Source: Gammaproteobacteria bacterium
Lineage (GTDB): Bacteria > Pseudomonadota > Gammaproteobacteria > UBA4575
Direction of reading: 5' to 3'
Assembly: GCA_965221955.1 (NCBI GenBank)
Contig: CBDCTA010000002.1
Location: forward strand, 1 to 64,000
Length of the DNA stretch: 64,000 bases
Shown here: positions 11,512 through 63,972 of the stretch, piece after piece
Position numbering within the stretch: position 1 is the first letter of the stretch
Layout: the number at the start of each line of letters is the position of its first letter
The notes under the pieces: generated by a model
What the model was told of the DNA's origin: nothing
What the model saw: the letters and a program-made list of their open reading frames with translations, nothing else
Database searches by the model: none
Translations under genes and position numbers: made by a program

Positions 11512-11527
11512 TGGCACGGCACTTGCT
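11512..11527 (+). promoter_or_regulatory. sigma54 promoter of the flgB operon
   Basis: TGGCACGGCACTTGCT. Confidence 0.85.
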
Positions 11528-11563: not shown

Positions 11564-11968
11564 GTGAATGTACTAGATAATTATTTTGGGATTAACGCAC
11601 AATCTGTCTTAGTGAGATCAAAACGTGCGGAAGTATTAGCTTCTAATATTATTAATGCCGATACCCCAAACTATAAAGCCAAAGATTTGGATTTTTCTGC
11701 CATTTTAAATGCAAATAATCCAGTTAATTCATTTAAACCAGTTTCTGTTAATACAAACCATGAAAAACACATTTTAAACGGTTCGTCTGATTCTTTTTTA
11801 TTACATACTAAATTTCGCATTCCAGAAAATGCATCATTAGATGGTAACACTGTAGATAGTCATGTTGAGAAAAGTAAATTTGCAGAAAATGCTGTGCGAT
11901 ATCAGATTAGCTTGTCTATGTTGAATAATAAAATCCAAGGCTTAATTAGTACATTAAAAGGTGAATAA
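11564..11968 (+). CDS. flgB: Basal-body rod protein FlgB
   Basis: 'RAEVLASNIINADTPNYKAKD', 'DGNTVD'. Confidence 0.95.
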   Translation: MNVLDNYFGINAQSVLVRSKRAEVLASNIINADTPNYKAKDLDFSAILNANNPVNSFKPVSVNTNHEKHILNGSSDSFLLHTKFRIPENASLDGNTVDSHVEKSKFAENAVRYQISLSMLNNKIQGLISTLKGE

Positions 11969-13121: not shown

Positions 13122-14354
13122 ATGCCATTTGATATAGCACTTACAGGACTGAATGCAGCGCAAAACGATTTACAAGTAATCTCAAATAATATTGCAAACA
13201 GTGAAACCAATGGTTTTAAAAGATCAAGAGCTGAGTTTGCAGATTTATATGCAACATCTCAATTTGGAACATCAAGTAATGCTATTGGCCAAGGTGTTGA
13301 AGTGGCAGCAATTACGCAACAGTTTACTGACGGTGACGTTACTTTTACTGACAATTCATTAGATCTGGCAATCACTGGACAAGGATTCTTTGTTTTAAGT
13401 GACGGTGGAGCACAAACGTTTACACGTGCAGGTGCATTTCAAGTAGACAATCTGGGCAATATTGTCAATTCATCAGGTAGTCAATTAGTTGGCTTTCAAG
13501 CAGATGCAACTGGCAATTTGACGGGTGCGCAAGGTCCGCTTGTTATAAGTCGTGCAAATTTAGCCCCAAATGTAACGAGTTCGATTAATCTTGATGCAAA
13601 TATTGATGCATCAGAACCGGTTTTACCTGCATTTTTAATTGGCCCAGGAGGAATACCTGATCCAGGTACCTATAACCATGCAACTTCTTATACTGTGTTT
13701 GATTCCTTGGGAGGTGAGCACGTTACTACAAACTATTTTAGAAAAGATAATGCAACAGATTGGCAAGTATTTCAGTTTGTGGATAACGTGCAAATCTCAG
13801 GTCCAGATGTACTAACCTTTGATGCATTTGGAGCATTAAGTGCAATTAATGCAGTACCTGGTGCTACAACAACAACATCTGCTGCATTTACACCTGGTGG
13901 TATTGGTGCACCTACGACATTCACAGTTGATTATGCAGACATCACACAATTTGGTGGGGGCTTTGGTATTAGTGCGATTGATCAAAACGGTTATGCAACA
14001 GGTCGTTTAAGCTCTTTAGATTTTGATCCTTCTGGAACTTTATTTGCACGGTATACCAATGGTCAATCGTTAACTTTAGGGCAAGTAGCACTTGCAAATT
14101 TTGCTAATGCACAAGGACTACGACCTGCAGGTAATACAGCATGGTCAGAATCCTTTGCATCGGGTCAACCTCTTATTGGTGCGCCAGGTTCAGCAGATCT
14201 AGGTTTGATTCAATCAGGTTCTTTAGAGGAATCAAATGTTGATGTTACGGGTGAATTAATAAACTTAATTCAAACACAACGGAACTTTCAAGCGAATGCA
14301 CAAGTAATTGGTACAGCAGATACCATTACTCAGACCATTATCAATATTCGTTAA
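13122..14354 (+). CDS. flgE: Hook protein FlgE
   Basis: 'ISNNIANSETNGFKRSR', 'QRNFQANAQVI'. Confidence 0.95.
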   Translation: MPFDIALTGLNAAQNDLQVISNNIANSETNGFKRSRAEFADLYATSQFGTSSNAIGQGVEVAAITQQFTDGDVTFTDNSLDLAITGQGFFVLSDGGAQTFTRAGAFQVDNLGNIVNSSGSQLVGFQADATGNLTGAQGPLVISRANLAPNVTSSINLDANIDASEPVLPAFLIGPGGIPDPGTYNHATSYTVFDSLGGEHVTTNYFRKDNATDWQVFQFVDNVQISGPDVLTFDAFGALSAINAVPGATTTTSAAFTPGGIGAPTTFTVDYADITQFGGGFGISAIDQNGYATGRLSSLDFDPSGTLFARYTNGQSLTLGQVALANFANAQGLRPAGNTAWSESFASGQPLIGAPGSADLGLIQSGSLEESNVDVTGELINLIQTQRNFQANAQVIGTADTITQTIINIR

Positions 14355-14375
14355 TAGTTTAAGGTAGTTAAAATC

Positions 14376-15116
14376 ATGGATCGTGCATTGTATGTAGCAA
14401 TGAATGGTGCAAAGCAAGTGCAACTGCACCAAGCTACAAACACAAATAATCTTGCTAATGCAAGTACCACGGGTTTTCGCGCTGACTTTGATGCGATTAA
14501 TAGTCTACCGGTGAAAGGTCCGGGTTATAACAGTCGAATTTATAGTCAAGATGAGCGTAGTGGAATAGATTTTTCGAGTGGTACATTGCAGCAAACGGGA
14601 AGGGAGCTTGATATCGCAGTAAATGGCAATGGTTTTATTGAAATTCAAGCGCCTGACGGTAACACAGCATACACGCGTGCGGGAGATTTACATACAACAG
14701 CAGCTGGTTTACTAGAAACAGGAGCGGGTCACCCTGTTTTAGGAAATGATGGACCGATAGCATTACCGCCATTTGAGAAGCTTGAAATTGCTGCTGACGG
14801 AACCATTTCGATTCTACCAGTTGGACAAGAAGCAACTACACTTGCAACAATCGATCGTATTAAGTTAGTCAATGCTAAACCAGAAGACCTATTCAAAGGT
14901 GAAGATGGTTTGTTAAGGGCGGTTCCCGATGCATCTATTGAGGCGGATGCATCGGTTACTGTTACATCGGGAGTATTGGAGTCTAGTAATGTTAATACGG
15001 TTGGAGAGTTGCTTGACATGATTGAGTTGACTCGAAACTTTGAAATGCATATTAAGGTGATGCAATCCATCGAAGAAAATGATTCTGCAACTTCACAATT
15101 ATTAAGAATTAACTAG
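14376..15116 (+). CDS. flgF: Basal-body rod protein FlgF
   Basis: 'MDRALYVAMNGA...NNLANASTTGFRAD'. Confidence 0.95.
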   Translation: MDRALYVAMNGAKQVQLHQATNTNNLANASTTGFRADFDAINSLPVKGPGYNSRIYSQDERSGIDFSSGTLQQTGRELDIAVNGNGFIEIQAPDGNTAYTRAGDLHTTAAGLLETGAGHPVLGNDGPIALPPFEKLEIAADGTISILPVGQEATTLATIDRIKLVNAKPEDLFKGEDGLLRAVPDASIEADASVTVTSGVLESSNVNTVGELLDMIELTRNFEMHIKVMQSIEENDSATSQLLRIN

Positions 15117-15139
15117 GAATATAATTATAGGTAAATAGT

Positions 15140-15925
15140 ATGTCTACAGCACTTTGGAACTCAAAAACAGGATTAGATACACAACAAACTCGAATTGCCG
15201 TAATTGCAAATAACTTGGCAAACGCTAACACCACAGGATTTAAACGTGATCGTGCTGTTTTTGAAGATCTAATTTATCAAACCGTGCGCCAACCAGGAGC
15301 ACAGTCTTCGCAAGACACACAATTTCCTACTGGCTTACAAGTAGGAACTGGTGTTCGATTGGTAGCTACAGAAAAATTATTCTCACAGGGCAACTTGACT
15401 AGAACTGAAAGTCCGTTGGATCTTGCAATTCAAGGAAATGGTTTTTTTCAAATTCTGCAGCCAGATGGAACAATTGGTTACACGCGTGATGGAACATTCA
15501 CGTTGGATTCAACAGGGCAAATCGTGAATTCCAGTGGTTATGTGTTGCAACCTTCTATCACTATTCCACCAAATGTACTCAATATAACAATTGGCGCAGA
15601 TGGGACTGTATCCGCACAAACAAGTGGTTCAGCAGCACCAACACAAGTTGGAAATATTCAACTAGTTACTTTTGTAAATCCAACTGGTTTGCAAGCACGT
15701 GGAGGGAATTTGTTGTTTGAAACTGCAGCTTCAGGAACACCACAAGTAGGTACACCTGGGGAAAATGGTTTGGGAAGGCTCGAGCAAGGCTCTTTAGAAA
15801 CTTCAAATGTAAATATAGTTGAAGATCTAATTAATATGATCGAGACACAACGTGTATATGAAGTAAATTCTCGTGCTATAGAAACGATTAGTAGCATGCT
15901 TGAATTCGCAAATAACACACTATAA
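15140..15925 (+). CDS. flgG: Distal rod protein FlgG
   Basis: '[26 protein letters not shown]'. Confidence 0.95.
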
Positions 15926-37548: not shown

Positions 37549-37564
37549 TGGCACGCTGGTTGCT
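37549..37564 (+). promoter_or_regulatory. sigma54 promoter of the fliL operon
   Basis: TGGCACGCTGGTTGCT. Confidence 0.85.
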
Positions 37565-53034: not shown

Positions 53035-53592
53035 ATGAACCTTTATGACGATGAAAAAATAGAAATAGCTATATTAGGAAGTGGCAAATTATCTGATTTG
53101 ATAATTGAAAAGCTAATACCTACTCAAATTACTATTAATATTTTAGAGTCTGATAAAAATCCATACTCTGGAAATTGTAGTGTCCAATCTCATAGCTCTA
53201 TATTAAGAGTCGTAAAATCATCTTCAATCATAATTACAATTCTTTCCGATGGTCCAGCATTAGAAGAAATGCTATTTGGCGAGCAAGGAATACTCAATTA
53301 TGTATCGAGTGTGAACACAATAGTTGATATGAGCTCTGTTTCGCCAGAGCTAATAAAAGAAATTTCAGAACAATTAGTAGAGAAAGAGGTTCCATTTCTA
53401 GATGCTGCGATTATTAATGAAGTGGCGAGTGAATCAGCTCTTATCCAAATGATATTGATTGGAGGAGAGGAGCATATATATAAGAGTGTTTTACCTGTTT
53501 TTCAGACAATCGCAGATGAGGTGAAACACATTGGTGAAAATGGGGCGAGTCAATTCTATCGACAAGCCTTTGGAGTGAGGGCTAAAAGGTAG
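53035..53592 (+). CDS. NAD(P)-binding domain of the 3-hydroxyisobutyrate/6-phosphogluconate dehydrogenase family, truncated and degenerate
   Basis: 'IVDMSSVSP', 'FLDAAI', 'HIGENGASQ'; ends before the helical C-terminal domain. Confidence 0.7.
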   Translation: MNLYDDEKIEIAILGSGKLSDLIIEKLIPTQITINILESDKNPYSGNCSVQSHSSILRVVKSSSIIITILSDGPALEEMLFGEQGILNYVSSVNTIVDMSSVSPELIKEISEQLVEKEVPFLDAAIINEVASESALIQMILIGGEEHIYKSVLPVFQTIADEVKHIGENGASQFYRQAFGVRAKR

Positions 53593-53780: not shown

Positions 53781-54017
53781 GTGTCGGTTGTTCAGTATTT
53801 AGATATTCCAAGTGCCTCAAGGTTTACTGGTATCTCAATCACAAAACTATACAGATTTATCCATGCAGGAGATCTATCCGCCCATAAGGAAAATGGGAAA
53901 CTCGTTGTCAAAGTTCAAGATATTTTGAGGATGAAATCACGAATAAAGGACAGTGAGCTGCTAGAGCCTGCCTTTATGAATTTTATTGCAGAAGTTAAGT
54001 CTAAAAATACAAATTAA
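53781..54017 (+). CDS. Small excisionase-like helix-turn-helix protein
   Basis: 'YLDIPSASRFTGISITKLYRFIHAGDL'. Confidence 0.7.
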   Translation: MSVVQYLDIPSASRFTGISITKLYRFIHAGDLSAHKENGKLVVKVQDILRMKSRIKDSELLEPAFMNFIAEVKSKNTN

Positions 54018-54030
54018 TTTTCAAGCTAAG

Positions 54031-54516
54031 TTAATTGCTCAGTTTGCAAAATTTACCCGCATGCCATACTGAAGGTGGGCAACTATTTACACTTAAAAAT
54101 TCAACTTGACCAACTAAAATAATATGGTCTCCACCTGGATAAACGTGACTAGTCTTACATTCTAATGATACAGGGCAGTTAGGGAGAATAGGTAGGCCAG
54201 TTGAGCCTTCAACAAATTCATCACCATCAAATTTGTCACATCCTTTAGTGGCAAATTTAAATGCGAGTGCTTCATGCTCATTATCTATGATATTAACTGC
54301 AAACGTGGTTTTTTTGTTGAAGGATTCAAAACAATCAGCATTATTTGCTAAACAAACTAGTATTAACGGCGGAGAAAGCGATAGTGAAGTAAAAGCAGAA
54401 GCTGTAAAGCCACAACGATCACCTTGGTCATTAATAGTTGTGACTATCGTAACGCCACTAGGAAAGCAAGCCATCGCCTGTTTAAAAGAATCATCATTAA
54501 TTTTGTTGGTTGGCAT
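54031..54516 (-). CDS. Flavin reductase (HpaC/RutF family)
   Basis: 'FPSGVTIVTT', 'SAFTSLSLSPPLILVC', 'GGDHIILVGQV'. Confidence 0.92.
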   Translation of the reverse strand: MPTNKINDDSFKQAMACFPSGVTIVTTINDQGDRCGFTASAFTSLSLSPPLILVCLANNADCFESFNKKTTFAVNIIDNEHEALAFKFATKGCDKFDGDEFVEGSTGLPILPNCPVSLECKTSHVYPGGDHIILVGQVEFLSVNSCPPSVWHAGKFCKLSN

Positions 54517-54638
54517 ATTGTCAAATTATAATTTTACTGCACGATTGAATATACACAATAAATCTACGGTTATCGATGTAATAGGAAATCGCTATTGTTA
54601 TTTTAGTATTTAATCATTTATCTTATACACTATTTACT

Positions 54639-54654
54639 TGCAATTTATATGCCA
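54639..54654 (-). promoter_or_regulatory. sigma54 promoter of the flavin reductase gene
   Basis: Minus strand TGGCATATAAATTGCA. Confidence 0.75.
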
Positions 54655-55001
54655 TTAATGTTTAAAAGTTTAATCTACTTAATCTTCGATTTAATAAGGT
54701 TATGCTATTAAAGTTCAGTGAGCTTAATTATTTATTTGTTTCAATATGAAAGCTTGAAAATTTTAACTTGTTCTTTTTGATACAAATGTTGTAGTGTAAT
54801 ACTAAACAAAATGTAGCAAATTGATAAATAAAGTATCAGCTACATTCTTTATGAAATCATTATAGTAATGAGAGTTAGTTTGGAAGTGGCTGTAAAGATG
54901 TAAGTTATTAAGTACAAAATCTTTTACAACCCGCTAAATGTGAGCATAAGAAATTGCAGCTATTTTTTTATATTACACAAACTAAACATTAAAATTGAGG
55001 A

Positions 55002-56402
55002 GTGAAAATGAAAATTTCTCATAAAATTTTAGTTGTTGAACATGATGTAGAGTTTGGTGAATCCGTGAAAATTTTGCTCGATGGTGAGCAAATGTCTGTA
55101 ACACATGTCTCAAAAGTTCATGATGCAATGAAAATGCTCTTGTCAGAGCATTATGATTTAATTTTGAGTGATCTAAAGTTAAGCGGTCCAACTGGCCTGG
55201 ACTTATTAAGAAAGGTTCGTGCTGAAAAGCTAGAAATACCGACGATCATTATGACTAGCTACACTTCTATTAAATGTGCTGCACAAGCATTGCGCCTTGG
55301 TGCTGCAGATTACATCCTAAAACCATTTACTGATTCATATTTATTACATGCTGTCGAGAGATGCTTAAAAGAAAAGTATATTCAAAAAGAAAATACTCTA
55401 TTACGACGAAATTTAAGCGCTGCACTACATACCAAGCAAGAAATAATTGGTGACAGTCATTCCATGCATGAGCTTAAGAAATTAATTAAAAGGGTTGGGC
55501 CAAGTGATGCAACTGTTCTTATACAAGGTGAAAGTGGTACTGGTAAAGAATTGGTGGCCTTAGGAATTCATAAAGAAAGTCCACGAAGAGAAGGTAGATT
55601 TGTTCCTGTTAATTGTGGCGCAATACCAATAGAGTTGATGGAATCTGAATTTTTTGGGCATGTAAAAGGTGCATACACGGGTGCTGTTTCAAGTAAAGTA
55701 GGGCTGATTCAAGAGGCGCATGGGGGAACTCTATTTTTAGATGAGATTTCAGAATTAGCACCAATGCTACAAGTGAAATTGTTGCGATTTATACAGGAAA
55801 AAATGATTAAGCCTGTAGGTGAAAGCAAATCTCATGAGGTAGATGTTCGTATTATTGCTGCATGTAATCGAGATTTACAAAATGAAGTTAATGAAGGGCG
55901 AATGCGAGAAGATTTATTTTATCGATTAAATGTCATTCAAATTTCTGTACCTCCGTTGCGTCAACGACTAGAGGATATAGAAATTCTCACACAATATTTT
56001 ATCAATCATTACAATAATAAATTAGGCAGGAAAATTGATAGTGTTGAAGATGAAGCGATTGACTTATTAAAAGAGTATCAATGGCCTGGAAATATTAGAG
56101 AATTAGAAAATTCAATTGAGCGCGCTGTAATATTAGCTAAAAGTGACGAACTGACTGCAGAAGATTTCAAACATATAAAATCAAATGGAGTAAATCAAAA
56201 ACCAATAAATGGTCAAGAGCATAAGTCACATGAGCCGATGTCAATAGAAGATTATACGCGTCGAGTAATTGAAAATTACCAAGATCGCTATAGTGAAATT
56301 GAACTTGCAAATTTATTAGGCATAGGGCGAAAAGCGTTATGGATGCGCCGAAATAGATGGGGACTGTTTAGGGATAAACCAAAAACAGCTGCAGAATTAT
56401 AA
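55002..56402 (+). CDS. sigma54-dependent response regulator, CbrB-like
   Basis: Receiver, 'GESGTGKE', 'GAYTGA'; HTH 'SIEDY...EIELANLLGIGRKALWMRRNRWG' resembles the CbrB C-terminus. Confidence 0.88.
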   Translation: MKMKISHKILVVEHDVEFGESVKILLDGEQMSVTHVSKVHDAMKMLLSEHYDLILSDLKLSGPTGLDLLRKVRAEKLEIPTIIMTSYTSIKCAAQALRLGAADYILKPFTDSYLLHAVERCLKEKYIQKENTLLRRNLSAALHTKQEIIGDSHSMHELKKLIKRVGPSDATVLIQGESGTGKELVALGIHKESPRREGRFVPVNCGAIPIELMESEFFGHVKGAYTGAVSSKVGLIQEAHGGTLFLDEISELAPMLQVKLLRFIQEKMIKPVGESKSHEVDVRIIAACNRDLQNEVNEGRMREDLFYRLNVIQISVPPLRQRLEDIEILTQYFINHYNNKLGRKIDSVEDEAIDLLKEYQWPGNIRELENSIERAVILAKSDELTAEDFKHIKSNGVNQKPINGQEHKSHEPMSIEDYTRRVIENYQDRYSEIELANLLGIGRKALWMRRNRWGLFRDKPKTAAEL

Positions 56403-56669
56403 GATATACATTAAAAATATTTTATAAGCGACATTTAATTTCTGTATATTTAAATTTATTTCAGATTAAATTTCCATTTTAGCTATTACTCATAACTTAT
56501 ATTCTTAAATAATAATTTACTAATTAGCTCGAAATAGTAGATAAATAAATTCGTTTAAAACAAAAATGTGTGCTTCTTTGTTTCTATCTAGATATGTTAA
56601 GTGTCTTTTAGAAACACTCTATTCTATTTAATTCTCTTAACCCTGTGAGTTTGCGCGGTTTGCATAAAC

Positions 56670-56685
56670 AGGAACGAAAATTGCT
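56670..56685 (+). promoter_or_regulatory. sigma54 promoter
   Basis: AGGAACGAAAATTGCT (GG-N10-GC). Confidence 0.65.
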
Positions 56686-56903
56686 TTATAATTTAAGTAA
56701 GGTATTCTCATGTGCCGCAAGTTTTTAATTATTTGCTTTTGATGGGTTTGTGTACTCCTTCAACATGAATTAAATTACTAATTTGCGGTTACATGAGATT
56801 ACTGAAAATTCAGAAATTAAAATAACTAAATATAAATCCTTGCTTTTTAATATTCATAGACATGCTATGCAATACACAAAAGTATTTATGTAGGAGGAAA
56901 AAA

Positions 56904-58332
56904 ATGAAGTTCTTTAACTTTACAAAGCTAACAGTGTTAACAATATCATTTGTTGCAATGTTAATTAGTCCTTTAGCAATTTTTGCTGAAGGTAAAATGT
57001 ATATTCCTATACCAAGTTATCGTGTAGGACCATACGCTGCAGGAGGAACAGGTTATTACGGCGGTATTCTTGATTACTATAATCTAATGAATATTCGTGA
57101 TGGCGGTGTAGGCGGTGTCAAACTCACTTGGTCAGAGTGTGAAACAGAATATTCTGTAGAACGAGGTGTTGAATGCTATAAGCGAATGAAAGACCGTGAT
57201 GGTGGGGCATTGTTTTTTGATCCTTTAAGTGTAGGTATAGCAATTGCCTTAAATGAAGTGGTTCGTAAAGATCAAATCCCTATGATCACAGTGAATCATG
57301 GCATGAGTGAAACTATTGATGGTGAGGTTTTCCCATATGTATTTCCATTAGGTATGGGTGTTCCTGATGAATACAATGCAACAGTTCGTTTTATGGCACA
57401 TTTAGAATCTGGTGAAAACCCTAATACGGTTGACATCAAGAAGGCTTTAGATGGCAAGAAAATTGTTACATTATTTCATGGGTCTCCTTATGGAAAAGAA
57501 GCACTTGATTACATGGACGCGATGGGTGAAGAGTATGGATTTGAGCATCATAGAATTGAAATTCCACACCCAGGTAACGAACAGCAAGCGCAATGGCTTC
57601 AGATAAGAAAAATTAAACCAGACTTTGTATTCTTACGTGGATGGGGAGTAATGAACCCTGTAGCAATGCAATCTGCAGCGCGTATTGGTTATCCAGTGTA
57701 ATCGTTTGATTGGAAATATTTGGAGTAATTCAGATGAAGATGTGGTGCCTGCGGGTAAAGCTGCACATGGCTATCAAGCTATTACCACACACCCTGCTGG
57801 TATTTTCGCGGATGTTCAAAATGAAATTATTGAAACCGTCTATGGTGGCGGAAAAGGTGATTTACAAGATAAAAGCCGTCTAGGAAGTGTGTATCATAAT
57901 CTTGGTATCACTGCTGGCATCATGCACGTAGAAGCGATTCGAAATGCTCAAAAACGTTGGGGTAATGTGCCTTTAACCGCACAGCAAGTGCGATGGGGCT
58001 TTGAAAACATTCACTTTGACGAAGCAAGAATTAAAGAGTTAGGTGCTGAAGGTTTGTTAGCGCCAATGTTAGTTACTTGTAAAGATCATGTAGGTGGACA
58101 TAATTCTAAATTCCAAAAATACAATGCTGAGAAACCCGTCAAGTGGGAAATTGTTACACCTTGGATTAAAAGCCAAGCACCAATTGATGGGCTCTATGCG
58201 TCAGCTGAGAAATATCGTGCAGATAACGAAATAGAGAAGCGTAACTGTGACGATGAAAATGATCGTAATAACTGGACGCTATCAGGCGATCAGCCAGCTG
58301 TTCCTGCAGGTGTAAGCACTTGGGGCAGTTAA
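56904..58332 (+). CDS. Branched-chain-amino-acid-fold ABC substrate-binding protein, split by a +1 frameshift near 57699
   Basis: RBS AGGAGG, signal peptide, 'YRVGPYA...ECETEY...GVECY', 'HPGNEQQAQWLQIR'; removing one T joins GYPV to NRLIGNIWS. Confidence 0.85.
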
Positions 58333-58593
58333 AAGGTATTGTGTCTAGATAGTAAATCTATCTACTTGTACATTAGCTGCGCTTTCAAAACGTAGAACAA
58401 CGCATTAGCCACTGAGCAAAAGGCAAGCCGGGTTACAGGAAGTAACTCGTTACAAGGAAGTGCGTCCGGTTTCGTTCAATGAAACACAAAAATTCGTTTC
58501 TTTTTGACCTATGTTTCTAAAATGAAACATAATATAGTTCTGTGTAAAAACTTATAGTATATTTATAATTGTATCGATAGATCATGGGTCTTA

Positions 58594-58610
58594 TGGCATA
58601 ATAAAATGCA
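58594..58610 (+). promoter_or_regulatory. sigma54-like promoter of ribBA with one extra base
   Basis: TGGCATAATAAAATGCA (GG-N11-GC) in an insertion-rich region. Confidence 0.5.
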
Positions 58611-58674
58611 GAATTAGAGCACAATCGCTGCAAGTTTTTATTCAAGGCAATAACTTATATTCAGTAAGTCATCT

Positions 58675-59916
58675 ATGGGTGAAGTTCAATTTAATAGTAT
58701 TTCTGAAGCATTGATTGATTTGCGTCGAGGTAAGTTAGTAATCGTAGTCGATGATGAATGTCGTGAGAATGAAGGTGATTTCATAGGAGCGGCAGATAAA
58801 TGTACCCCTGAAATGATCAATTTCATGGCTACTCATGGTAGAGGTTTAATTTGTACTGCAATTACAAGAGAACGAGCAGATGAGCTTAATTTAGATTTAA
58901 TGGTATGCTGAGTCAGACAATGATTCATTGCACATGAAACACCGTTTTCACAACTTCTGTAGATTTTAAACATGGAACAACAACAGGAATTTCTGCAGCA
59001 GATCGATCGAAAACAGTTAAAGCTTTGTCAGACCACAAATATTAGATGGGGAAAGATTTTGCACGACCTGGGCATATCTTTCCATTACGTGCGGCTAGAA
59101 GGAGGGGTATTTAGAAGAAATGGTCATACTGAAGCAACGATAGATTTAATGGATTTAGCAGGTTTAAAAAAGCCGGTGTTCTGTGTGAAATTATGAATGA
59201 AGATGGTTCACCATGGCGCGTCTTGCCTGAACTTACAAGACATTGGCAAAGATGCATGGATTAAAGATTAATAAGTATAAAAGACTTAATCCAATATAAA
59301 TTACGTTATGAGTCTAGAGTTCAGCGTGTAGTTACGGTTGATTTGCCAACAAATGGGGCGATTTTGAGTTAGTCGCGTTTAGTGATATTTATACTGATAA
59401 AGAACATTTAGCAATCGTCAAAGGGTCATGGGGAAAAGATGATGAAGTCATTGTGCGAATACATTCTGAATGTTTGACGGGTGATGTATTTGGTTCGTCA
59501 CGTTGTGATTGTGGGGATCAACTTCAATCATCAATTAAAAATTCATCAATGAGCATGGCGCTGGAGTCGTTTTATATATGCGAGAAGAGGGAAGAGGCAT
59601 TGGATTGCTTAGTAAACTTAAAGCCTACTCATTACAAGAATGTGGCTTAGATACTGTTCAAGCAAATAGAGCATTAGGATTTGATGCAGATCATCGAGAC
59701 TACACTGTAGCAGCACATATACTAAGTGCATTGCATGTTGAACGAGTTCAGTTGTTAACAAATAATATGAATAAATGTTGTTGGATGGAGAAACATGGAA
59801 TTGAGTGTACAAAAAGAATTCCGATCTTGTCACCATGTGAAGATCACGAATACCGAAAAAAATATTTAAATACTAAAAAAGAGAAAATGGGTCATGTAAT
59901 CCCCATGAAGAAATGA
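58675..59916 (+). pseudogene. ribBA: Bifunctional DHBP synthase / GTP cyclohydrolase II with multiple frameshifts (pseudogene or sequencing error)
   Basis: Motifs spread across frames: '[12 protein letters not shown]', 'TTGISAADR', 'RPGHIFPL', 'GHTEA', 'RIHSECLTGDVFGSSRCDCG', 'EGRGIGL', 'KKEKMGH'. Confidence 0.9.
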
Positions 59917-59980
59917 AAGAGATAAATTATTAATTGTTTTAACCTGGATTATTTAATGGAGAAATTTCGTAGGAGGAAAA

Positions 59981-60169
59981 ATGTCTGAGAATGAAGAATT
60001 TGGTTTAAAGGACTTAACTGCAGAAATGATAAAAATCGTAAGGAATGAGACAAGAGCTGGAACAATAGACTGTAGGGATGCGTTGATTGAAAGTAAGGGA
60101 GATACGGATAAAGCGATAGAGATTTTGAAAGAGAAGGGAATTGGAACACCAAAAAAAGTTTGGACGTAA
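59981..60169 (+). CDS. Stand-alone EF-Ts N-terminal (UBA-like) domain protein, 62 aa
   Basis: 'TAEMIKIVRNETRAGTIDCRDALIESKGDTDKAIEILKEKG' parallels the EF-Ts N-terminus '[29 protein letters not shown].AI'; strong RBS AGGAGG. Confidence 0.75.
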   Translation: MSENEEFGLKDLTAEMIKIVRNETRAGTIDCRDALIESKGDTDKAIEILKEKGIGTPKKVWT

Positions 60170-60287
60170 GAATTATGCCTTTTGCAACGGTTGTATTATT
60201 GAATATATTTAACTTGATAAATAATTGTTCAAAGAATGCAGAGAAAATTGATACATAGTCGACTATATAAGAGAACAGAGGTGAAAA

Positions 60288-61460
60288 ATGGCAACATATC
60301 CAAAACTATTACCAAATTCTGAGAATCCACTTAAGCCTTCGGCTTGGCTGGAATCAGATCAAGTGGAGTTTGCGTATTGGGTGCCCAACATATCTGGTGG
60401 TTTGGTAATTACAACACTACCTATGGATACTGATTGGACTCCTGAGGCAAACATTAAATATGCGCAAGATGCAGAAGAAGTAGGATTTGCAACTGCTCTA
60501 TGCCAAACACGTTGGTTTGCAAGTTATGGCGCAGACCATCAACACGAAGCATTCACAATTGCGAATGTACTTCTACAACACACTAAAAAAATTGAAATGA
60601 TTACTGCATGTCATCCCGGTTTATGGCATCCGGCAATTGTGGCTAAGTTGCAAGCATCGCTTGATGTTTGTTGTCAAGGCCGTACTTCAATTAATATCGT
60701 GAGTGGCTGGTTCAAAGGCGAATTTACGGGTTATGGCTTACCATGGCTTGAGCATACTGAACGATATCGTAGATCCGAAGAATTCATTCGTATTATGAAA
60801 GGTATGTGGACTGAAGAAGAGTACACCATGTACGGGGATTTCTATCAAATAAATGGTGCTCCAATGCTACCAAAGCCGTTACACAGAATTACAGTATTTC
60901 AGGGTGGAAACTCTAAAGATGCGCGTCGAATGGCAGGTAGAGTGACAGATTGCTTGTTTATGAATGGAAATACAAACAAAGGCTTTAAAGAAATTATGGA
61001 TGATTCTCGTGCCTCTGCAGTCGAGAGTGGTCGTGATCCTAACGAACTTAAGTTTGGTGCAAATGGTTTTTGTATTGTTCGCGATACGATGGAAGAAGCA
61101 ACCGATACTTTGCGTGAAATCATCGTTAATGCTGATGTAGAAGCTGTGAAGGGTTTTGGTGAAGCTGTGAAAAACGCAGGCCGATCATCTGCTGAAGGTG
61201 AAGGCATGTGGGCAAATTCATCATTTGAAGATTTAGTTCAATATAATGATGGCTTTAAGACTGGCCTTATTGGCACACCAGAAACAGTTGCTGATCGTAT
61301 TATTGAGCTAAAACAGTTAGGTATGAAAGTAATCCTTTGTGGGTTCTTGCACTACAATACAGACTTAAGAGCATTTGGCGAGAAGGTTATTCCTTTAGTG
61401 CGTGAGAAAGAAGAAGACCTTCGCAAAGGTAAGTCTTACGGCAAAAAGAAGTCTGCTTAA
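60288..61460 (+). CDS. sfnG: FMNH2-dependent luciferase-like monooxygenase, dimethylsulfone monooxygenase SfnG family
   Basis: 'FAYWVPNISGGLV', 'NIVSGWFKGEF', 'WLEH.ERYRRSEEFIR', 'FEDLVQYNDGFKT.LIGTP'. Confidence 0.85.
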   Translation: MATYPKLLPNSENPLKPSAWLESDQVEFAYWVPNISGGLVITTLPMDTDWTPEANIKYAQDAEEVGFATALCQTRWFASYGADHQHEAFTIANVLLQHTKKIEMITACHPGLWHPAIVAKLQASLDVCCQGRTSINIVSGWFKGEFTGYGLPWLEHTERYRRSEEFIRIMKGMWTEEEYTMYGDFYQINGAPMLPKPLHRITVFQGGNSKDARRMAGRVTDCLFMNGNTNKGFKEIMDDSRASAVESGRDPNELKFGANGFCIVRDTMEEATDTLREIIVNADVEAVKGFGEAVKNAGRSSAEGEGMWANSSFEDLVQYNDGFKTGLIGTPETVADRIIELKQLGMKVILCGFLHYNTDLRAFGEKVIPLVREKEEDLRKGKSYGKKKSA

Positions 61461-61512
61461 TCAAGTAAAGTACTAAGCTTAGATTATCTAATGCTATGTA
61501 TTTTCCTCTGCC

Positions 61513-61572
61513 AGAAACGCTGAGAAAAGGAATTAAATAGAAATTATAAATTCCTTTTCTCTTGTCGTTTCT
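61513..61572 (+). other. Long intergenic stem-loop between sfnG and the FMN reductase
   Basis: GAGAAAAGGAATT...AATTCCTTTTCTC 13-bp stem, extended by AGAAACG/CGTTTCT. Confidence 0.7.
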
Positions 61573-61596
61573 AGCATTATTTAGGAGGTATATGTA

Positions 61597-62196
61597 ATGA
61601 AATTACTAGGAATATCAGGAGGCATGAGTCAAAAAACTCTTGTTGCTTTAGAAAAGGCACTTGATTTTGCATATCAATATGACAATGCTATAGATATTGA
61701 GGTAATAAGTATTGGCGAGCTTGATATCCAATTTTGTGATGGTAGAGATCCGGCAAAATATGAAGGCGATACAAAGCTTATTATTGACAAAATTATTGAT
61801 GCAGATGCATTGATATTTGGAACACCGATGTATCGAGGGACTTATACTGGACTGTTAAAAAACGTTTTTGACTTAATCCCGAATGACGCACTTATGGGTA
61901 AACCAGTAGGCTTGATTGCAACAGGTGGTAGTGATCATCATTATTTAGCATTAGAGCACGAACTCAAACCTTTGTTAGGTTTTTTTCTCGCACACGCTAT
62001 TCCTGGGAATGTGTATGCAAATAATGAGCATTATTCTAATAGGGATTTAGTAGATCAAGATGTTCTTGACCGTTTAAGAGAGCTTGCAGAGTCTATTGTA
62101 AATTTTGTAAGAATCTTGCCGGAAGATAAAGCAAGCCTCGTAGGTGCGAGAGCACCCACTATAAGAAGGAAGCCTATACTAAAAAAAGCTAGTTAA
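61597..62196 (+). CDS. NAD(P)H-dependent FMN reductase (SsuE/MsuE/SfnF family)
   Basis: 'GTPMYRGTYTGLLKNVFD', 'ATGGSDHHYLALEHELKPL'. Confidence 0.9.
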   Translation: MKLLGISGGMSQKTLVALEKALDFAYQYDNAIDIEVISIGELDIQFCDGRDPAKYEGDTKLIIDKIIDADALIFGTPMYRGTYTGLLKNVFDLIPNDALMGKPVGLIATGGSDHHYLALEHELKPLLGFFLAHAIPGNVYANNEHYSNRDLVDQDVLDRLRELAESIVNFVRILPEDKASLVGARAPTIRRKPILKKAS

Positions 62197-62218
62197 AAAT
62201 AAATAATAAATACTCATA

Positions 62219-62539
62219 TTGTCGGAGGAACGTATGTCTCAAAATAATCCTAAATATAAAATTTTGCAGCAAGTCGTAGATGAAGAAACGTATAGGACAG
62301 ATACATCTACTTTATTGGCTTATGATGAAGGCAATAGTAAATTTCTTTTTAGGGCATTAAATTCTAATTATTTTTTACAAAGTGACGATAAAGAAGAAAT
62401 ACAAGTATTAGAAATGGGTGAGGCTGAAGAGATGTGGAATGAAATGCCAAATAAGCATGTAACGAATATTACTGCTGCATTTCCAAAATATCATGGTGGT
62501 GTAGGAATGGATACCTATACTAATTTGTATGACGACTAA
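62219..62539 (+). CDS. Hypothetical acidic protein
   Basis: Operon-embedded ORF; likely start ATG 62234 after GGAGG; no recognised motif. Confidence 0.7.
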   Translation: MSEERMSQNNPKYKILQQVVDEETYRTDTSTLLAYDEGNSKFLFRALNSNYFLQSDDKEEIQVLEMGEAEEMWNEMPNKHVTNITAAFPKYHGGVGMDTYTNLYDD

Positions 62540-62588
62540 TCTTGTAGCACATTAAGATAATTAGCTTATAAGCTTTAAGGGGTTAGTA

Positions 62589-63164
62589 ATATCTACATTA
62601 GTAATACCTCCGTTAAATTATTGCACTAATTGTGGAGCAAAACTTACACGTTTTGTTCCAAATGGCGACTTGTTAGAGCGTAGTGTTTGTCATAAATGCG
62701 AACTAGTTCATTACGAAAATCCAAAAATACTTGTAGGAAGCATTATTGATTGCGATAGCAAAGTTTTATTATGCAAACGGGCAACTGAGCCGCGTCTGGG
62801 TTATTGGACATTGCCATCTGGCTATATGGAAAATAATGAAACTGTTCATGCTGCTGCGCTTCGTGAAACCTATGAAGAAACTAAGGTATCAGTGGAGGAG
62901 TTGAGTTTATACTCAGTATTCTCATGCCCTAACATAAATCAAGTTTACTTTATATTTCGTGGTCAGGCAGATAATGACTGCGCCTCTACAACAGAGGAAA
63001 GTTCAGAGACAAGATATTTTCAAAAACAAGATATTCCCTGGCATGATTTATCTTATTCTATTATGAAACAAGCCTTAGAGTGGTATTTTCACGATAAAGA
63101 AATTGGTAGCTACCACTTTAGAATGCATGATGTGTATGGTTGCGATCCGGATTTACAATCATAA
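62589..63164 (+). CDS. NUDIX hydrolase with N-terminal zinc ribbon
   Basis: The frame extends upstream of 62670 to include 'NYCTNCG...VCHKC'; Nudix box 'GYMENNET...AALRETYEET'; inferred ATA start at 62589. Confidence 0.85.
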   Translation: MSTLVIPPLNYCTNCGAKLTRFVPNGDLLERSVCHKCELVHYENPKILVGSIIDCDSKVLLCKRATEPRLGYWTLPSGYMENNETVHAAALRETYEETKVSVEELSLYSVFSCPNINQVYFIFRGQADNDCASTTEESSETRYFQKQDIPWHDLSYSIMKQALEWYFHDKEIGSYHFRMHDVYGCDPDLQS

Positions 63165-63345
63165 ATAAAACTCAATTAGTGTGTTGTTCCCACACTACTA
63201 AAATCCTAACCTTTTGCTCTTCATATGTTTCAAAGTGCACATATCCAGATAGCGTTAATGAAACATGTTAATTTTTAAATTAATAATGAATTCACTATTG
63301 ATACTTAAACTACTAGTTATTAAGGCAATATTTTTTCATAAATTG

Positions 63346-63361
63346 TGGCCCATTAGTTGCA
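63346..63361 (+). promoter_or_regulatory. sigma54 promoter of the OsmC-family gene
   Basis: TGGCCCATTAGTTGCA. Confidence 0.65.
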
Positions 63362-63402
63362 GGTATTTTAATTAAAGCTGTTAAAAATTAGGAAATGTAA
63401 GG

Positions 63403-63972
63403 TTGAGCCAAGAGAATATTAGAGATAATACAAGTTTAAAAGACTCCGTATTAAATCTTATTAGTAAAACTTCTGCTGACGAAAATGTTGGGAAATTTTC
63501 CTATAGTGTTTATACACATAATGAAGGAGGGGTATTGTGTAAAGCAAGGGTGCGAAATGAACATAGTTTAGTTGTTGATGAGAAACCAATCTTAGGCGGT
63601 TGTGATTTGGGTATGAGCCCCATTGAGCTTTTATTAGTTTCATTAGGTACATCACAAGAAATTGTATTCTCGATGATGGCGTCTAAATTAAATATTGAAT
63701 TAGAAGAATGTGAAGTGCAGTTAACAGCGGAATTAGATGTAAGAGGAATGCTTGGTGTTGCAGATAGGAACAATGAGGCAGGAACTGGGCTTAGCAATAT
63801 TAATTATACTACTAAATTGAAAAGTAACGCTTCAAGTAAGCAGCTTGAAGTGCTAATCCAAGCAGTTAAAAAACAATGTCCAGTATTAAATATATTGACA
63901 GAGAAAGTAAGTGTAAAAGGCACAACAATAATAAATAACTATGAATTGAATCATAGAGATAAAGTTGCCTAA
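63403..63972 (+). CDS. OsmC/Ohr family protein
   Basis: 'VDEKPILGG.DLGMSPIELLLVSLG', 'LDVRGMLG', 'KQCPVL'. Confidence 0.85.
   Translation: MSQENIRDNTSLKDSVLNLISKTSADENVGKFSYSVYTHNEGGVLCKARVRNEHSLVVDEKPILGGCDLGMSPIELLLVSLGTSQEIVFSMMASKLNIELEECEVQLTAELDVRGMLGVADRNNEAGTGLSNINYTTKLKSNASSKQLEVLIQAVKKQCPVLNILTEKVSVKGTTIINNYELNHRDKVA

Follow-up and report, generated by a model that had tools for sequence, protein, structure and literature searches.

Dimethylsulfone (DMSO2) is a product of the marine oxidation of dimethylsulfide, and to our knowledge the only bacteria in which its use is understood are Acinetobacter and pseudomonads of soil. Riboflavin genes are joined to luciferase genes in the lux-rib operons of Photobacterium. 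In the sfn-msu system of Pseudomonas putida and P. fluorescens, the monooxygenase SfnG, of a family dependent on reduced flavin mononucleotide (FMNH2), is accompanied by the reductase MsuE or SfnF and the regulator SfnR. The sigma-54 control of sfnG by the dedicated activator SfnR in P. putida is described in works cited in PMC11588060 and PMC13352529, and these two papers give the Pseudomonas route after SfnG, in which methanesulfinate passes via MsuC and then MsuD/SsuD to sulfite. Here we describe a gene cluster around sfnG in an uncultured sulfur bacterium of marine origin, within a window of 64,000 nucleotides (nt), this being the whole stretch of DNA analysed (contig CBDCTA010000002.1 of assembly GCA_965221955.1, Gammaproteobacteria bacterium, positions 1 to 64,000). 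The window covers the initial 64 kb of its contig, which measures 221 kb, and the genome, 2.69 Mb in 29 contigs, is 96.6% complete. Genes between 53 and 64 kb were identified by Pfam and NCBIfam profile searches, which located every gene named in an initial annotation at the position given there. The conserved order is flavin reductase / sigma-54 activator, periplasmic binding protein, ribBA, a miniprotein resembling the N-terminal (UBA-type) domain of EF-Ts, sfnG, FMN reductase, a 101-amino-acid orphan protein, NUDIX and OsmC. The cluster is real and conserved, and it represents a variant, specific to its lineage, of a type of regulon already known. It is probably a sigma-54 regulon particular to an uncultured, marine, Thiotrichales-like family and built around an SfnG-type dialkylsulfone monooxygenase.

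The SfnG protein (60288..61460, + strand, 390 amino acids) scores 551 bits against TIGR04021, above the equivalog cut-off of 383, with the alignment spanning model positions 1-349 of 350. Comparison with the P. fluorescens enzyme (PDB 8t0u) gave an E value of 9.5e-122 and an identity of ~57%, the alignment being judged by eye. According to PMC11588060, the residues binding FMN, O2 and DMSO2 in the P. fluorescens enzyme are W11, Q53, I54, R55, Y60, N116, W121, H136, Y140, S188, S189, F267, W285, Y296 and N297. When these were mapped by eye, 13 of the 15 were identical here, including the sulfone-binding and aromatic-cage residues; the differences are I54 to T, at a backbone contact, and S188 to N. 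Thus the protein is a solid member of the family, and its likely substrate is a small dialkylsulfone. The cluster further resembles the sfn-msu system in its SsuE/MsuE-type FMN reductase, its neighbouring AAA+ activator gene and its -24/-12 promoters, although the one before the sfnG operon is canonical in relatives but not in this genome. The reductase, NAD(P)H-dependent and of 199 amino acids (61597..62196, + strand, PF03358), reaches 135 bits against the MsuE model TIGR03566, under the cut-off of 212. However, the activator of the cluster has a receiver domain, MsuD/SsuD is missing from this genome, and the cluster adds ribBA, a second reductase of the HpaC type, a periplasmic binding protein, the UBA miniprotein, the orphan, NUDIX and an OsmC-OsmC-AcsA-lipoyl-Lpd set. 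The second reductase (54031..54516, - strand, 161 amino acids) belongs to the Flavin_Reduct family of HpaC/RutF type (PF01613, 128 bits), with HpaC-like NCBIfam matches below their cut-offs.

The initial annotation had made conservation of this neighbourhood in relatives a check on its proposal, and the neighbourhood is indeed conserved. SfnG exceeds its cut-off in 10 of the 41 genomes searched, this one included, and at E <= 0.001 it is matched in 4 of the genus's 14 other genomes and in 9 of the family's 24. The complete order, from the NAD_binding_2 gene on the left to an open reading frame (ORF) of 96 amino acids on the right, recurs in relatives of the same and of other genera. A pattern scan using one genome per species recovered 27 related loci in 26 records, 23 of which are titled as metagenome-assembled genomes of uncultured Gammaproteobacteria or Thiotrichales and three of which bear other labels. 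The ribBA gene directly precedes sfnG in 22 of the 27 loci; one further locus is truncated at the end of its contig, and ribBA is absent from four. The orphan is present in 25 loci, the UBA gene in 17, the FMN reductase in 17, OsmC2 in 15 and Lpd in 13. Activator, binding protein and reductase occur all together in 12 loci, and a minimal version, ribBA-sfnG-orphan alone, makes up eight.

The control regions were compared by aligning four intergenic regions of this genome with those of as many as seven relatives, of which four belong to the same genus and three to others. Matches to the -24/-12 consensus with up to two mismatches number 51 in the window, compared with 33 +/- 5 in shuffled sequences. 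Since such loose matches are only modestly enriched, weight was placed on conservation at aligned places. The promoter of the flavin reductase gene (TGGCATATAAATTGCA, GG-N10-GC, 54639..54654, - strand, one mismatch) has an aligned equivalent in five of six genomes, that of the binding-protein gene (AGGAACGAAAATTGCT, GG-N10-GC, 56670..56685, + strand, two mismatches) in seven of seven, and that of the OsmC operon (TGGCCCATTAGTTGCA, GG-N10-GC, 63346..63361, + strand, one mismatch) in six of seven. Three of the four promoters originally proposed are therefore canonical here and conserved. The fourth, before ribBA and the sfnG operon (TGGCATAATAAAATGCA, 58594..58610, + strand), is degenerate in this genome, with a GG-N11-GC spacing, whereas all seven relatives have the canonical TGGCAYAA...ATGC with N10; the activator gene is adjacent. 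Upstream of each promoter, the same intergenic regions hold candidate activator sites. These are GTTTC-N5-GAAAG with TGTTC-N5-GATAC at 54738..54783, in a block conserved in the alignment; GTTTC-N26-GAAAC with the inner half-sites AGATA and GTGTC at 56580..56615, conserved in seven of seven genomes; GTTTC-N12-GTTTC-N6-GAAAC at 58496..58528, where the relatives have the dyad GTTTC-N5-GAAAC; and GTTTC-N28-GAAAC at 63227..63264, conserved in six of seven genomes. We infer that the neighbouring activator binds these GTTTC/GAAAC blocks.

The activator (55002..56402, + strand, 466 amino acids) is an NtrC-family response regulator with REC, AAA+ and lid domains and a C-terminal helix-turn-helix (PF00072, PF00158, PF25601). 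Its sequence retains the receiver Asp pocket, Walker A, the GAYTGA motif and the C-terminal helix-turn-helix, as expected for an NtrC-family enhancer-binding protein; HTH_8 is faint (E 0.058, G010 orthologue). Its best NCBIfam matches are AtoC and NtrC, all below cut-offs, and no CbrB model stands among the best 25 of the 112 NCBIfam matches, leaving the earlier label of the activator as CbrB-like without support. The genome carries rpoN. A fifth candidate promoter (TGGCCTGCTAATTGCT) lies on contig C29, ~45 nt before an Fnr-family gene, with GTTTC-N27-GAAAC and GTTTC-N5-GAAAC upstream, and a matching promoter with half-sites precedes the Fnr-family orthologue in the relative G007. At this locus (C29:471700-475061) a third paralogue of the orphan, with ~50% identity, and an FMN monooxygenase of the NtaA/DmoA family, which exceeds its cut-off with 513 bits, lie back to back with the Fnr-family gene, an arrangement also conserved in G007. 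The conserved -24/-12 elements and the shared GTTTC/GAAAC sites in relatives support the initial proposal of a regulon around sfnG, dependent on sigma-54 and a bacterial enhancer-binding protein and comprising two flavin reductases and accessory genes.

Several observations weigh against this regulon reading. The 345-nt spacer before ribBA has no GG-N10-GC site with at least 7 of the 11 consensus letters, so that the third operon is without a correctly spaced promoter in this genome. The activator motif is loose: exact GTTTC-N5-GAAAC occurs once in the genome, ahead of the Fnr-family gene, against ~3 expected by composition, and it was dropped as a regulon-wide motif. A relaxed genome scan for promoter plus site gave 27 of 4547 sites, mostly unconvincing, and was unspecific. 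No sensor kinase gene adjoins the activator. AcsA, to which the reading assigns no role, is absent from six relatives that retain OsmC2 and Lpd. No SsuD/MsuD was found in the 96.6% complete genome, where the sole matches to TIGR03565 were SfnG and the protein of the NtaA/DmoA family, each under the cut-off (MsuC was not searched for); the known methanesulfinate-to-sulfite route is thus incomplete. Neither class III formaldehyde dehydrogenase nor ribulose monophosphate (RuMP) synthase was found in the genome. Furthermore, sulfur limitation is unlikely in seawater.

The last points bear on whether the regulon serves sulfur scavenging under sulfate starvation, equivalent to the Pseudomonas sfn/msu pathway as described in PMC11588060 and PMC13352529. 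The two have in common their enzyme family, a reductase of MsuE type and, as predicted here, a dependence on sigma-54. However, besides the missing SsuD/MsuD homologue, the activator is a phospho-receiver protein, no CysB-type element was seen (no CysB site model was applied), the organism carries soxYZ, and the habitat is marine according to record titles and a run label, where sulfate is plentiful. Equivalence to the Pseudomonas pathway is therefore unlikely, and a lineage-specific regulon remains the preferred reading.

The ribBA gene had been listed as a member of the sfnG run, but it is not an open gene in this assembly. Its remnant (58675..59916, + strand), identified from pieces of DHBP synthase (DHBP, 3,4-dihydroxy-2-butanone 4-phosphate) and of GTP cyclohydrolase II by Pfam, NCBIfam and orthologue alignment, is read in three frames with in-frame TAA, TAG and TGA stops and is recognisable as four fragments; the two domains do not share one open frame. 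An alternative genetic code was ruled out, as three frames are involved and all three stops are present. The intact gene of the relatives encodes 408 amino acids, and comparison with four same-genus orthologues showed 12 insertions or deletions (indels; 10 insertions, 2 deletions, net +15) between 58906 and 59541. The neighbouring periplasmic binding-protein gene (56862..58332, + strand), by comparison with relatives, carries one extra base near 57698 that splits it into two frames, 56862-57701 and 57685-58332, whereas its orthologues are single ORFs of 477 amino acids with a signal-peptide-like N-terminus. A Peripla_BP_6 match bears out its initial annotation as a binding protein, but the gene is not intact here. 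Thus ribBA, its promoter spacing, the binding-protein gene and, as described below, the active site of OsmC1 are damaged in this assembly, whereas sfnG and its reductase are intact.

These breaks may reflect real decay, with ribBA, the binding-protein gene and OsmC1 inactivated, the regulon copy largely non-functional and the organism relying on external riboflavin. Alternatively, the indels may stem from assembly or polishing of a thinly covered patch, the regulon being intact as in the relatives. The 12 indels and stops in ribBA, the promoter spacer that is one base too long and the +1 frameshift in the binding-protein gene all fit decay. However, the insertions outnumber the deletions 10:2 and are packed within ~1.85 kb; this clustering in one stretch, mostly as insertions and outside homopolymers, with long intact ORFs elsewhere in the window, argues for an artefact. 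Substitution rates at the three codon positions are 0.17/0.055/0.50 in the damaged part of ribBA and 0.16/0.025/0.46 in the intact 3' part. As the codon-position bias is kept in the damaged part, the damage is very recent or non-biological, and this signature of purifying selection speaks for an artefact and against decay. The genes ribD, ribE and ribH are intact, which would be odd in an auxotroph and leads one to expect that a sole ribBA is necessary.

Low-depth metagenome contigs (X1-X4) bear on the same choice. The marine-metagenome relative X1 (95-97% identical) is without the insertions at 57698 and 59534/59537, a point against decay, and the near-identical contigs X2-X4 have a depth of ~2 and break around the stretch, as an artefact would predict. 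However, the centre of ribBA lies outside the coverage of all four. The change in OsmC1 falls outside the patch and is a substitution rather than an indel, replacing by Ser a Cys present at position 84 in all 24 orthologue rows, in keeping with decay. A second ribBA site, occupied in the relatives G010 and G001, holds only ~1 kb here and no ribBA remnant, which also fits decay. In G010, a complete same-genus genome, the AcsA gene of the cluster is likewise frameshifted and split into two overlapping frames (13763-15653); decay of cluster genes therefore does occur in the lineage. Across the genome, an ORF of at least 110 amino acids is lacking from 58 stretches of 700 nt or more, among which the ribBA patch ranks eleventh; these stretches may or may not point to a general problem of assembly quality. 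We give the artefact an even chance and decay a chance just short of that, the choice between them being at about even odds. As the flavin-supply gene is unreadable as assembled, an assembly check is needed before auxotrophy is claimed.

With ribBA broken and its promoter mis-spaced, the copy in this assembly cannot supply flavin. A search of the whole assembly found no other DHBP synthase (ribB) or GTP cyclohydrolase II (ribA), leaving the genome as assembled without any working ribB or ribA. The housekeeping operon (contig C4:97001-105000) reads glyA-nrdR-ribD-(190-amino-acid protein)-ribE-ribH-nusB-thiL, with no ribBA between ribE and ribH. In the complete relatives G017 and G019 the cluster ribBA holds the sole DHBP synthase domain found. 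The idea that the regulon has its own extra flavin supply, as initially suggested, is therefore doubtful, and the central proposal of the initial annotation holds up only in part. The cluster resembles the lux-rib operons in bringing a riboflavin gene together with the genes of a flavin reductase and an FMNH2 enzyme of the luciferase family, with which it would be transcribed jointly in relatives, but it joins ribBA only, which in some genomes is the sole DHBP synthase domain and so perhaps provides no extra supply.

It is possible, though we lean against it, that ribBA is simply the ordinary copy of the lineage, lying beside an FMN reductase gene, around which the sfnG module grew; in that case, the co-regulation would be a side effect of where the gene lies and not a means to high monooxygenase flux. 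The housekeeping operon without ribBA, the sole DHBP synthase domain in G017 and G019 and the missing second copy in this genome are all in line with such an origin, as is the pairing of ribBA with an MsuE-like reductase gene at another site, behind tRNA genes and with no -24/-12 site seen, in G010 and in G001, the latter without sfnG. However, the cluster ribBA has its own conserved sigma-54 promoter and candidate activator sites in seven of seven relatives and stays beside sfnG even in the eight loci of the minimal version. G010 and G022 retain two ribBA copies each, as expected if one is specialised. We thus still favour a ribBA that belongs to the regulon. In some relatives the only ribBA found sits behind a sigma-54 promoter, which would be an unusual control of an essential vitamin pathway.

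Two small proteins encoded in the sfnG operon appear to be coupled to each other. The UBA miniprotein (59981..60169, + strand, 62 amino acids) matches positions 4-50 of the EF-Ts model TIGR00116 (E 4e-11), is 36% identical to the N-terminus of the EF-Ts of this genome and has 89 homologues of about 60 amino acids. Both its sequence and its predicted fold match the EF-Tu-binding N-terminal (UBA/TS-N) domain of EF-Ts. However, it stands alone without an EF-Ts core, is paired or fused with the orphan and lies beside flavin monooxygenase genes, and no link to translation is indicated. The orphan protein ('hyp106', 62234..62539, with the frame open from 62219, + strand, 101 amino acids) has no sequence match in Pfam, NCBIfam or the PDB. 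It has 104 close homologues, all unnamed, and 20 matches among 1.84 billion representatives; among 400 genomes across the class, besides this one, only G023 of its own family and one marginal match (E 9.4e-4) were found. Its AlphaFold model consists of six strands followed by helices (predicted local distance difference test score 78). Foldseek returned nothing from the PDB at E <= 0.001, and a structure-Atlas search gave only unnamed clusters under 0.9. PipX was considered as a fold relative and rejected, as the best match had a Z score of 4.7, within the noise range.

The metagenomic protein P0112 is a natural fusion of the orphan with a UBA/TS-N domain. In its predicted model, the C-terminal domain superimposes on EF-Ts of the EF-Tu/Ts complex (1xb2_B) with a Z score of 8.2 and a root-mean-square deviation of 0.7 over 44 residues. 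Both domains are confident and the linker is disordered; the overall predicted template-modelling score of 0.53 gives no evidence on domain packing. An orphan match of 207 amino acids, P0121, is of low complexity at its N-terminus and shows no Pfam domain. Longer proteins in which the orphan is fused, for example to a flavin reductase, were absent from 8000 candidates, though this is weak evidence. Contig C4 (64823-65396) carries a further gene pair standing by itself, made up of a second UBA miniprotein with 79% identity and a second orphan with 67%; an isochorismatase gene and soxYZ flank the pair, and no monooxygenase gene is close by. The observed fusion indicates that the UBA miniprotein and the orphan belong together as one unit. 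The orphan family accompanies both SfnG and an NtaA/DmoA-family enzyme.

The fourth transcription unit extends beyond the window, so that it is larger than was initially described. The run was first taken to end at 63972 with OsmC1 (63403..63972, + strand, PF02566), but the contig continues (64063-68576) with OsmC2, AcsA, a lipoyl-domain Lpd and the 96-amino-acid ORF, followed by a sortase gene on the other strand. OsmC1 has Ser84 at the position of the first catalytic Cys, whereas all 24 orthologue rows of relatives have both Cys84 and Cys159; the two-Cys active site is thus incomplete here. OsmC2 keeps both catalytic Cys in this genome and in all relatives. AcsA, an acetate-CoA ligase, scores above its cut-off, as does Lpd, a dihydrolipoyl dehydrogenase with an N-terminal Biotin_lipoyl domain, and the gene content thereby provides a lipoyl partner for OsmC. 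Lipoyl groups reduce Ohr/OsmC peroxidases according to PMC5384416, and an OsmC2 with both Cys followed by an Lpd with its own lipoyl domain fits that account. However, the cluster OsmC proteins, of 189-201 amino acids, carry an N-terminal extension of ~60 residues and do not reach the cut-off of the single NCBIfam model related to OsmC that they matched, and OsmC1 here is without its first Cys. From these gene contents we infer that OsmC2 and lipoyl-Lpd form an NADH-driven peroxidase acting on peroxide that arises from free reduced flavin. A second pair of OsmC and lipoyl-domain Lpd occurs on contig C18 (188581-194232), after a FadL/TodX-type outer-membrane protein and a pair of PAS histidine kinase and LuxR-type response regulator.

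As the lineage lacks MsuD/SsuD, either the OsmC-OsmC-AcsA-lipoyl-Lpd operon or the orphan and UBA pair could serve a new handling of the sulfinate product or of reduced flavin. In one version, the AcsA paralogue could activate methanesulfinate with ATP and pass it to a dithiol relay, on OsmC or the lipoyl group, recycled by Lpd. In parallel, the orphan and the UBA miniprotein could together form a new kind of accessory subunit for monooxygenases of the luciferase family. We regard both this subunit role and the new handling of sulfinate or reduced flavin as very improbable.

The remaining genes of the region and features of its non-coding parts are as follows. The conserved left neighbours are an NAD_binding_2 (HIBADH-type Rossmann) protein of 185 amino acids (53035..53592, + strand; PF03446, E 4.7e-19, all NCBIfam matches below cut-offs), which has the same length and place in relatives, and, next to the flavin reductase gene, an HTH_17 protein of 78 amino acids (53781..54017, + strand; PF12728, E 6.4e-7). 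A genomic island, considered on account of the HTH_17 neighbour, was set aside, as the flanks are syntenic in relatives. The NUDIX hydrolase (62670..63164, + strand, 164 amino acids, PF00293) has NCBIfam matches that are all far below their cut-offs. A paralogue of the cluster binding protein (61% identical) lies on contig C26 (53339-56847) directly after two LivH/M-type permease genes, and the orphan binding protein of the cluster may use this transporter. Alignment and folding revealed a hairpin-forming stretch of ~65 nt (GCAAAAGGCAAGCCGG...GTCCGGTTTC, 58416..58480, + strand), located after the binding-protein gene and ahead of the control region of ribBA, that is conserved far beyond the level of the adjoining sequence. 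The predicted fold in relatives is a long hairpin that GCAAAA/TTTTGC closes; the stretch occurs once in the genome, matches no Rfam family, and was recovered by a pattern search in only 6 of the 27 related loci. No FMN riboswitch or other Rfam family was found at E <= 1 between 53500 and 64000. A motif, GTACTCCTTC, and bases adjoining it are conserved at 56740-56790 and in relatives; they belong to the binding-protein gene's 5' leader and lie downstream of the -12 element. Perfect TGGCAC-N5-TTGCW matches at 11512-11527 and 37549-37564, ~40-50 nt before ORFs at 11564 and 37603, indicate that sigma-54 is used elsewhere in the window too. Sigma-70-type promoters, 35 compared with 42.8 +/- 6 in shuffled sequences, were uninformative.

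In the regulon as we propose it from gene content and control regions, the NtrC-family response regulator would be phosphorylated by a kinase encoded elsewhere, bind the tandem GTTTC/GAAAC sites and activate the sigma-54 promoters. It would thereby drive the Flavin_Reduct reductase (unit 1), the periplasmic binding protein (unit 2), the ribBA-UBA miniprotein-sfnG-FMN reductase-orphan-NUDIX operon (unit 3) and the OsmC-OsmC-AcsA-lipoyl-Lpd-ORF96 operon (unit 4), with the unlinked Fnr-family regulator beside the orphan paralogue and the NtaA/DmoA-family monooxygenase as a probable unit 5. Using FMNH2 from the reductases, SfnG would convert dimethylsulfone to methanesulfinate and formaldehyde, the reaction established for the family, while OsmC2 and the lipoyl-carrying Lpd would act as an NADH-driven peroxidase clearing peroxides formed from free reduced flavin and oxygen. 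The UBA miniprotein and the 101-amino-acid orphan would act as one unit, and in the relatives co-transcription of ribBA would tie flavin synthesis to the regulon.

The gene set was initially judged not to be a described system, and this holds for its accessory part. The combination of ribBA, the two small proteins, the second reductase, the binding protein and the OsmC-Lpd set was not found in the literature searched, supplementary files aside; sfnG and ribBA co-occur in one paper, where they are mentioned apart. It does not hold for the sigma-54 control of sfnG, which is already known through SfnR of P. putida. Thus, as far as the searched literature goes, the accessory gene set is new. The cluster would represent a conserved marine version of dimethylsulfone use with a different switch and without the known downstream enzymes, in which two small proteins, fused in one organism, accompany two kinds of flavin monooxygenase.

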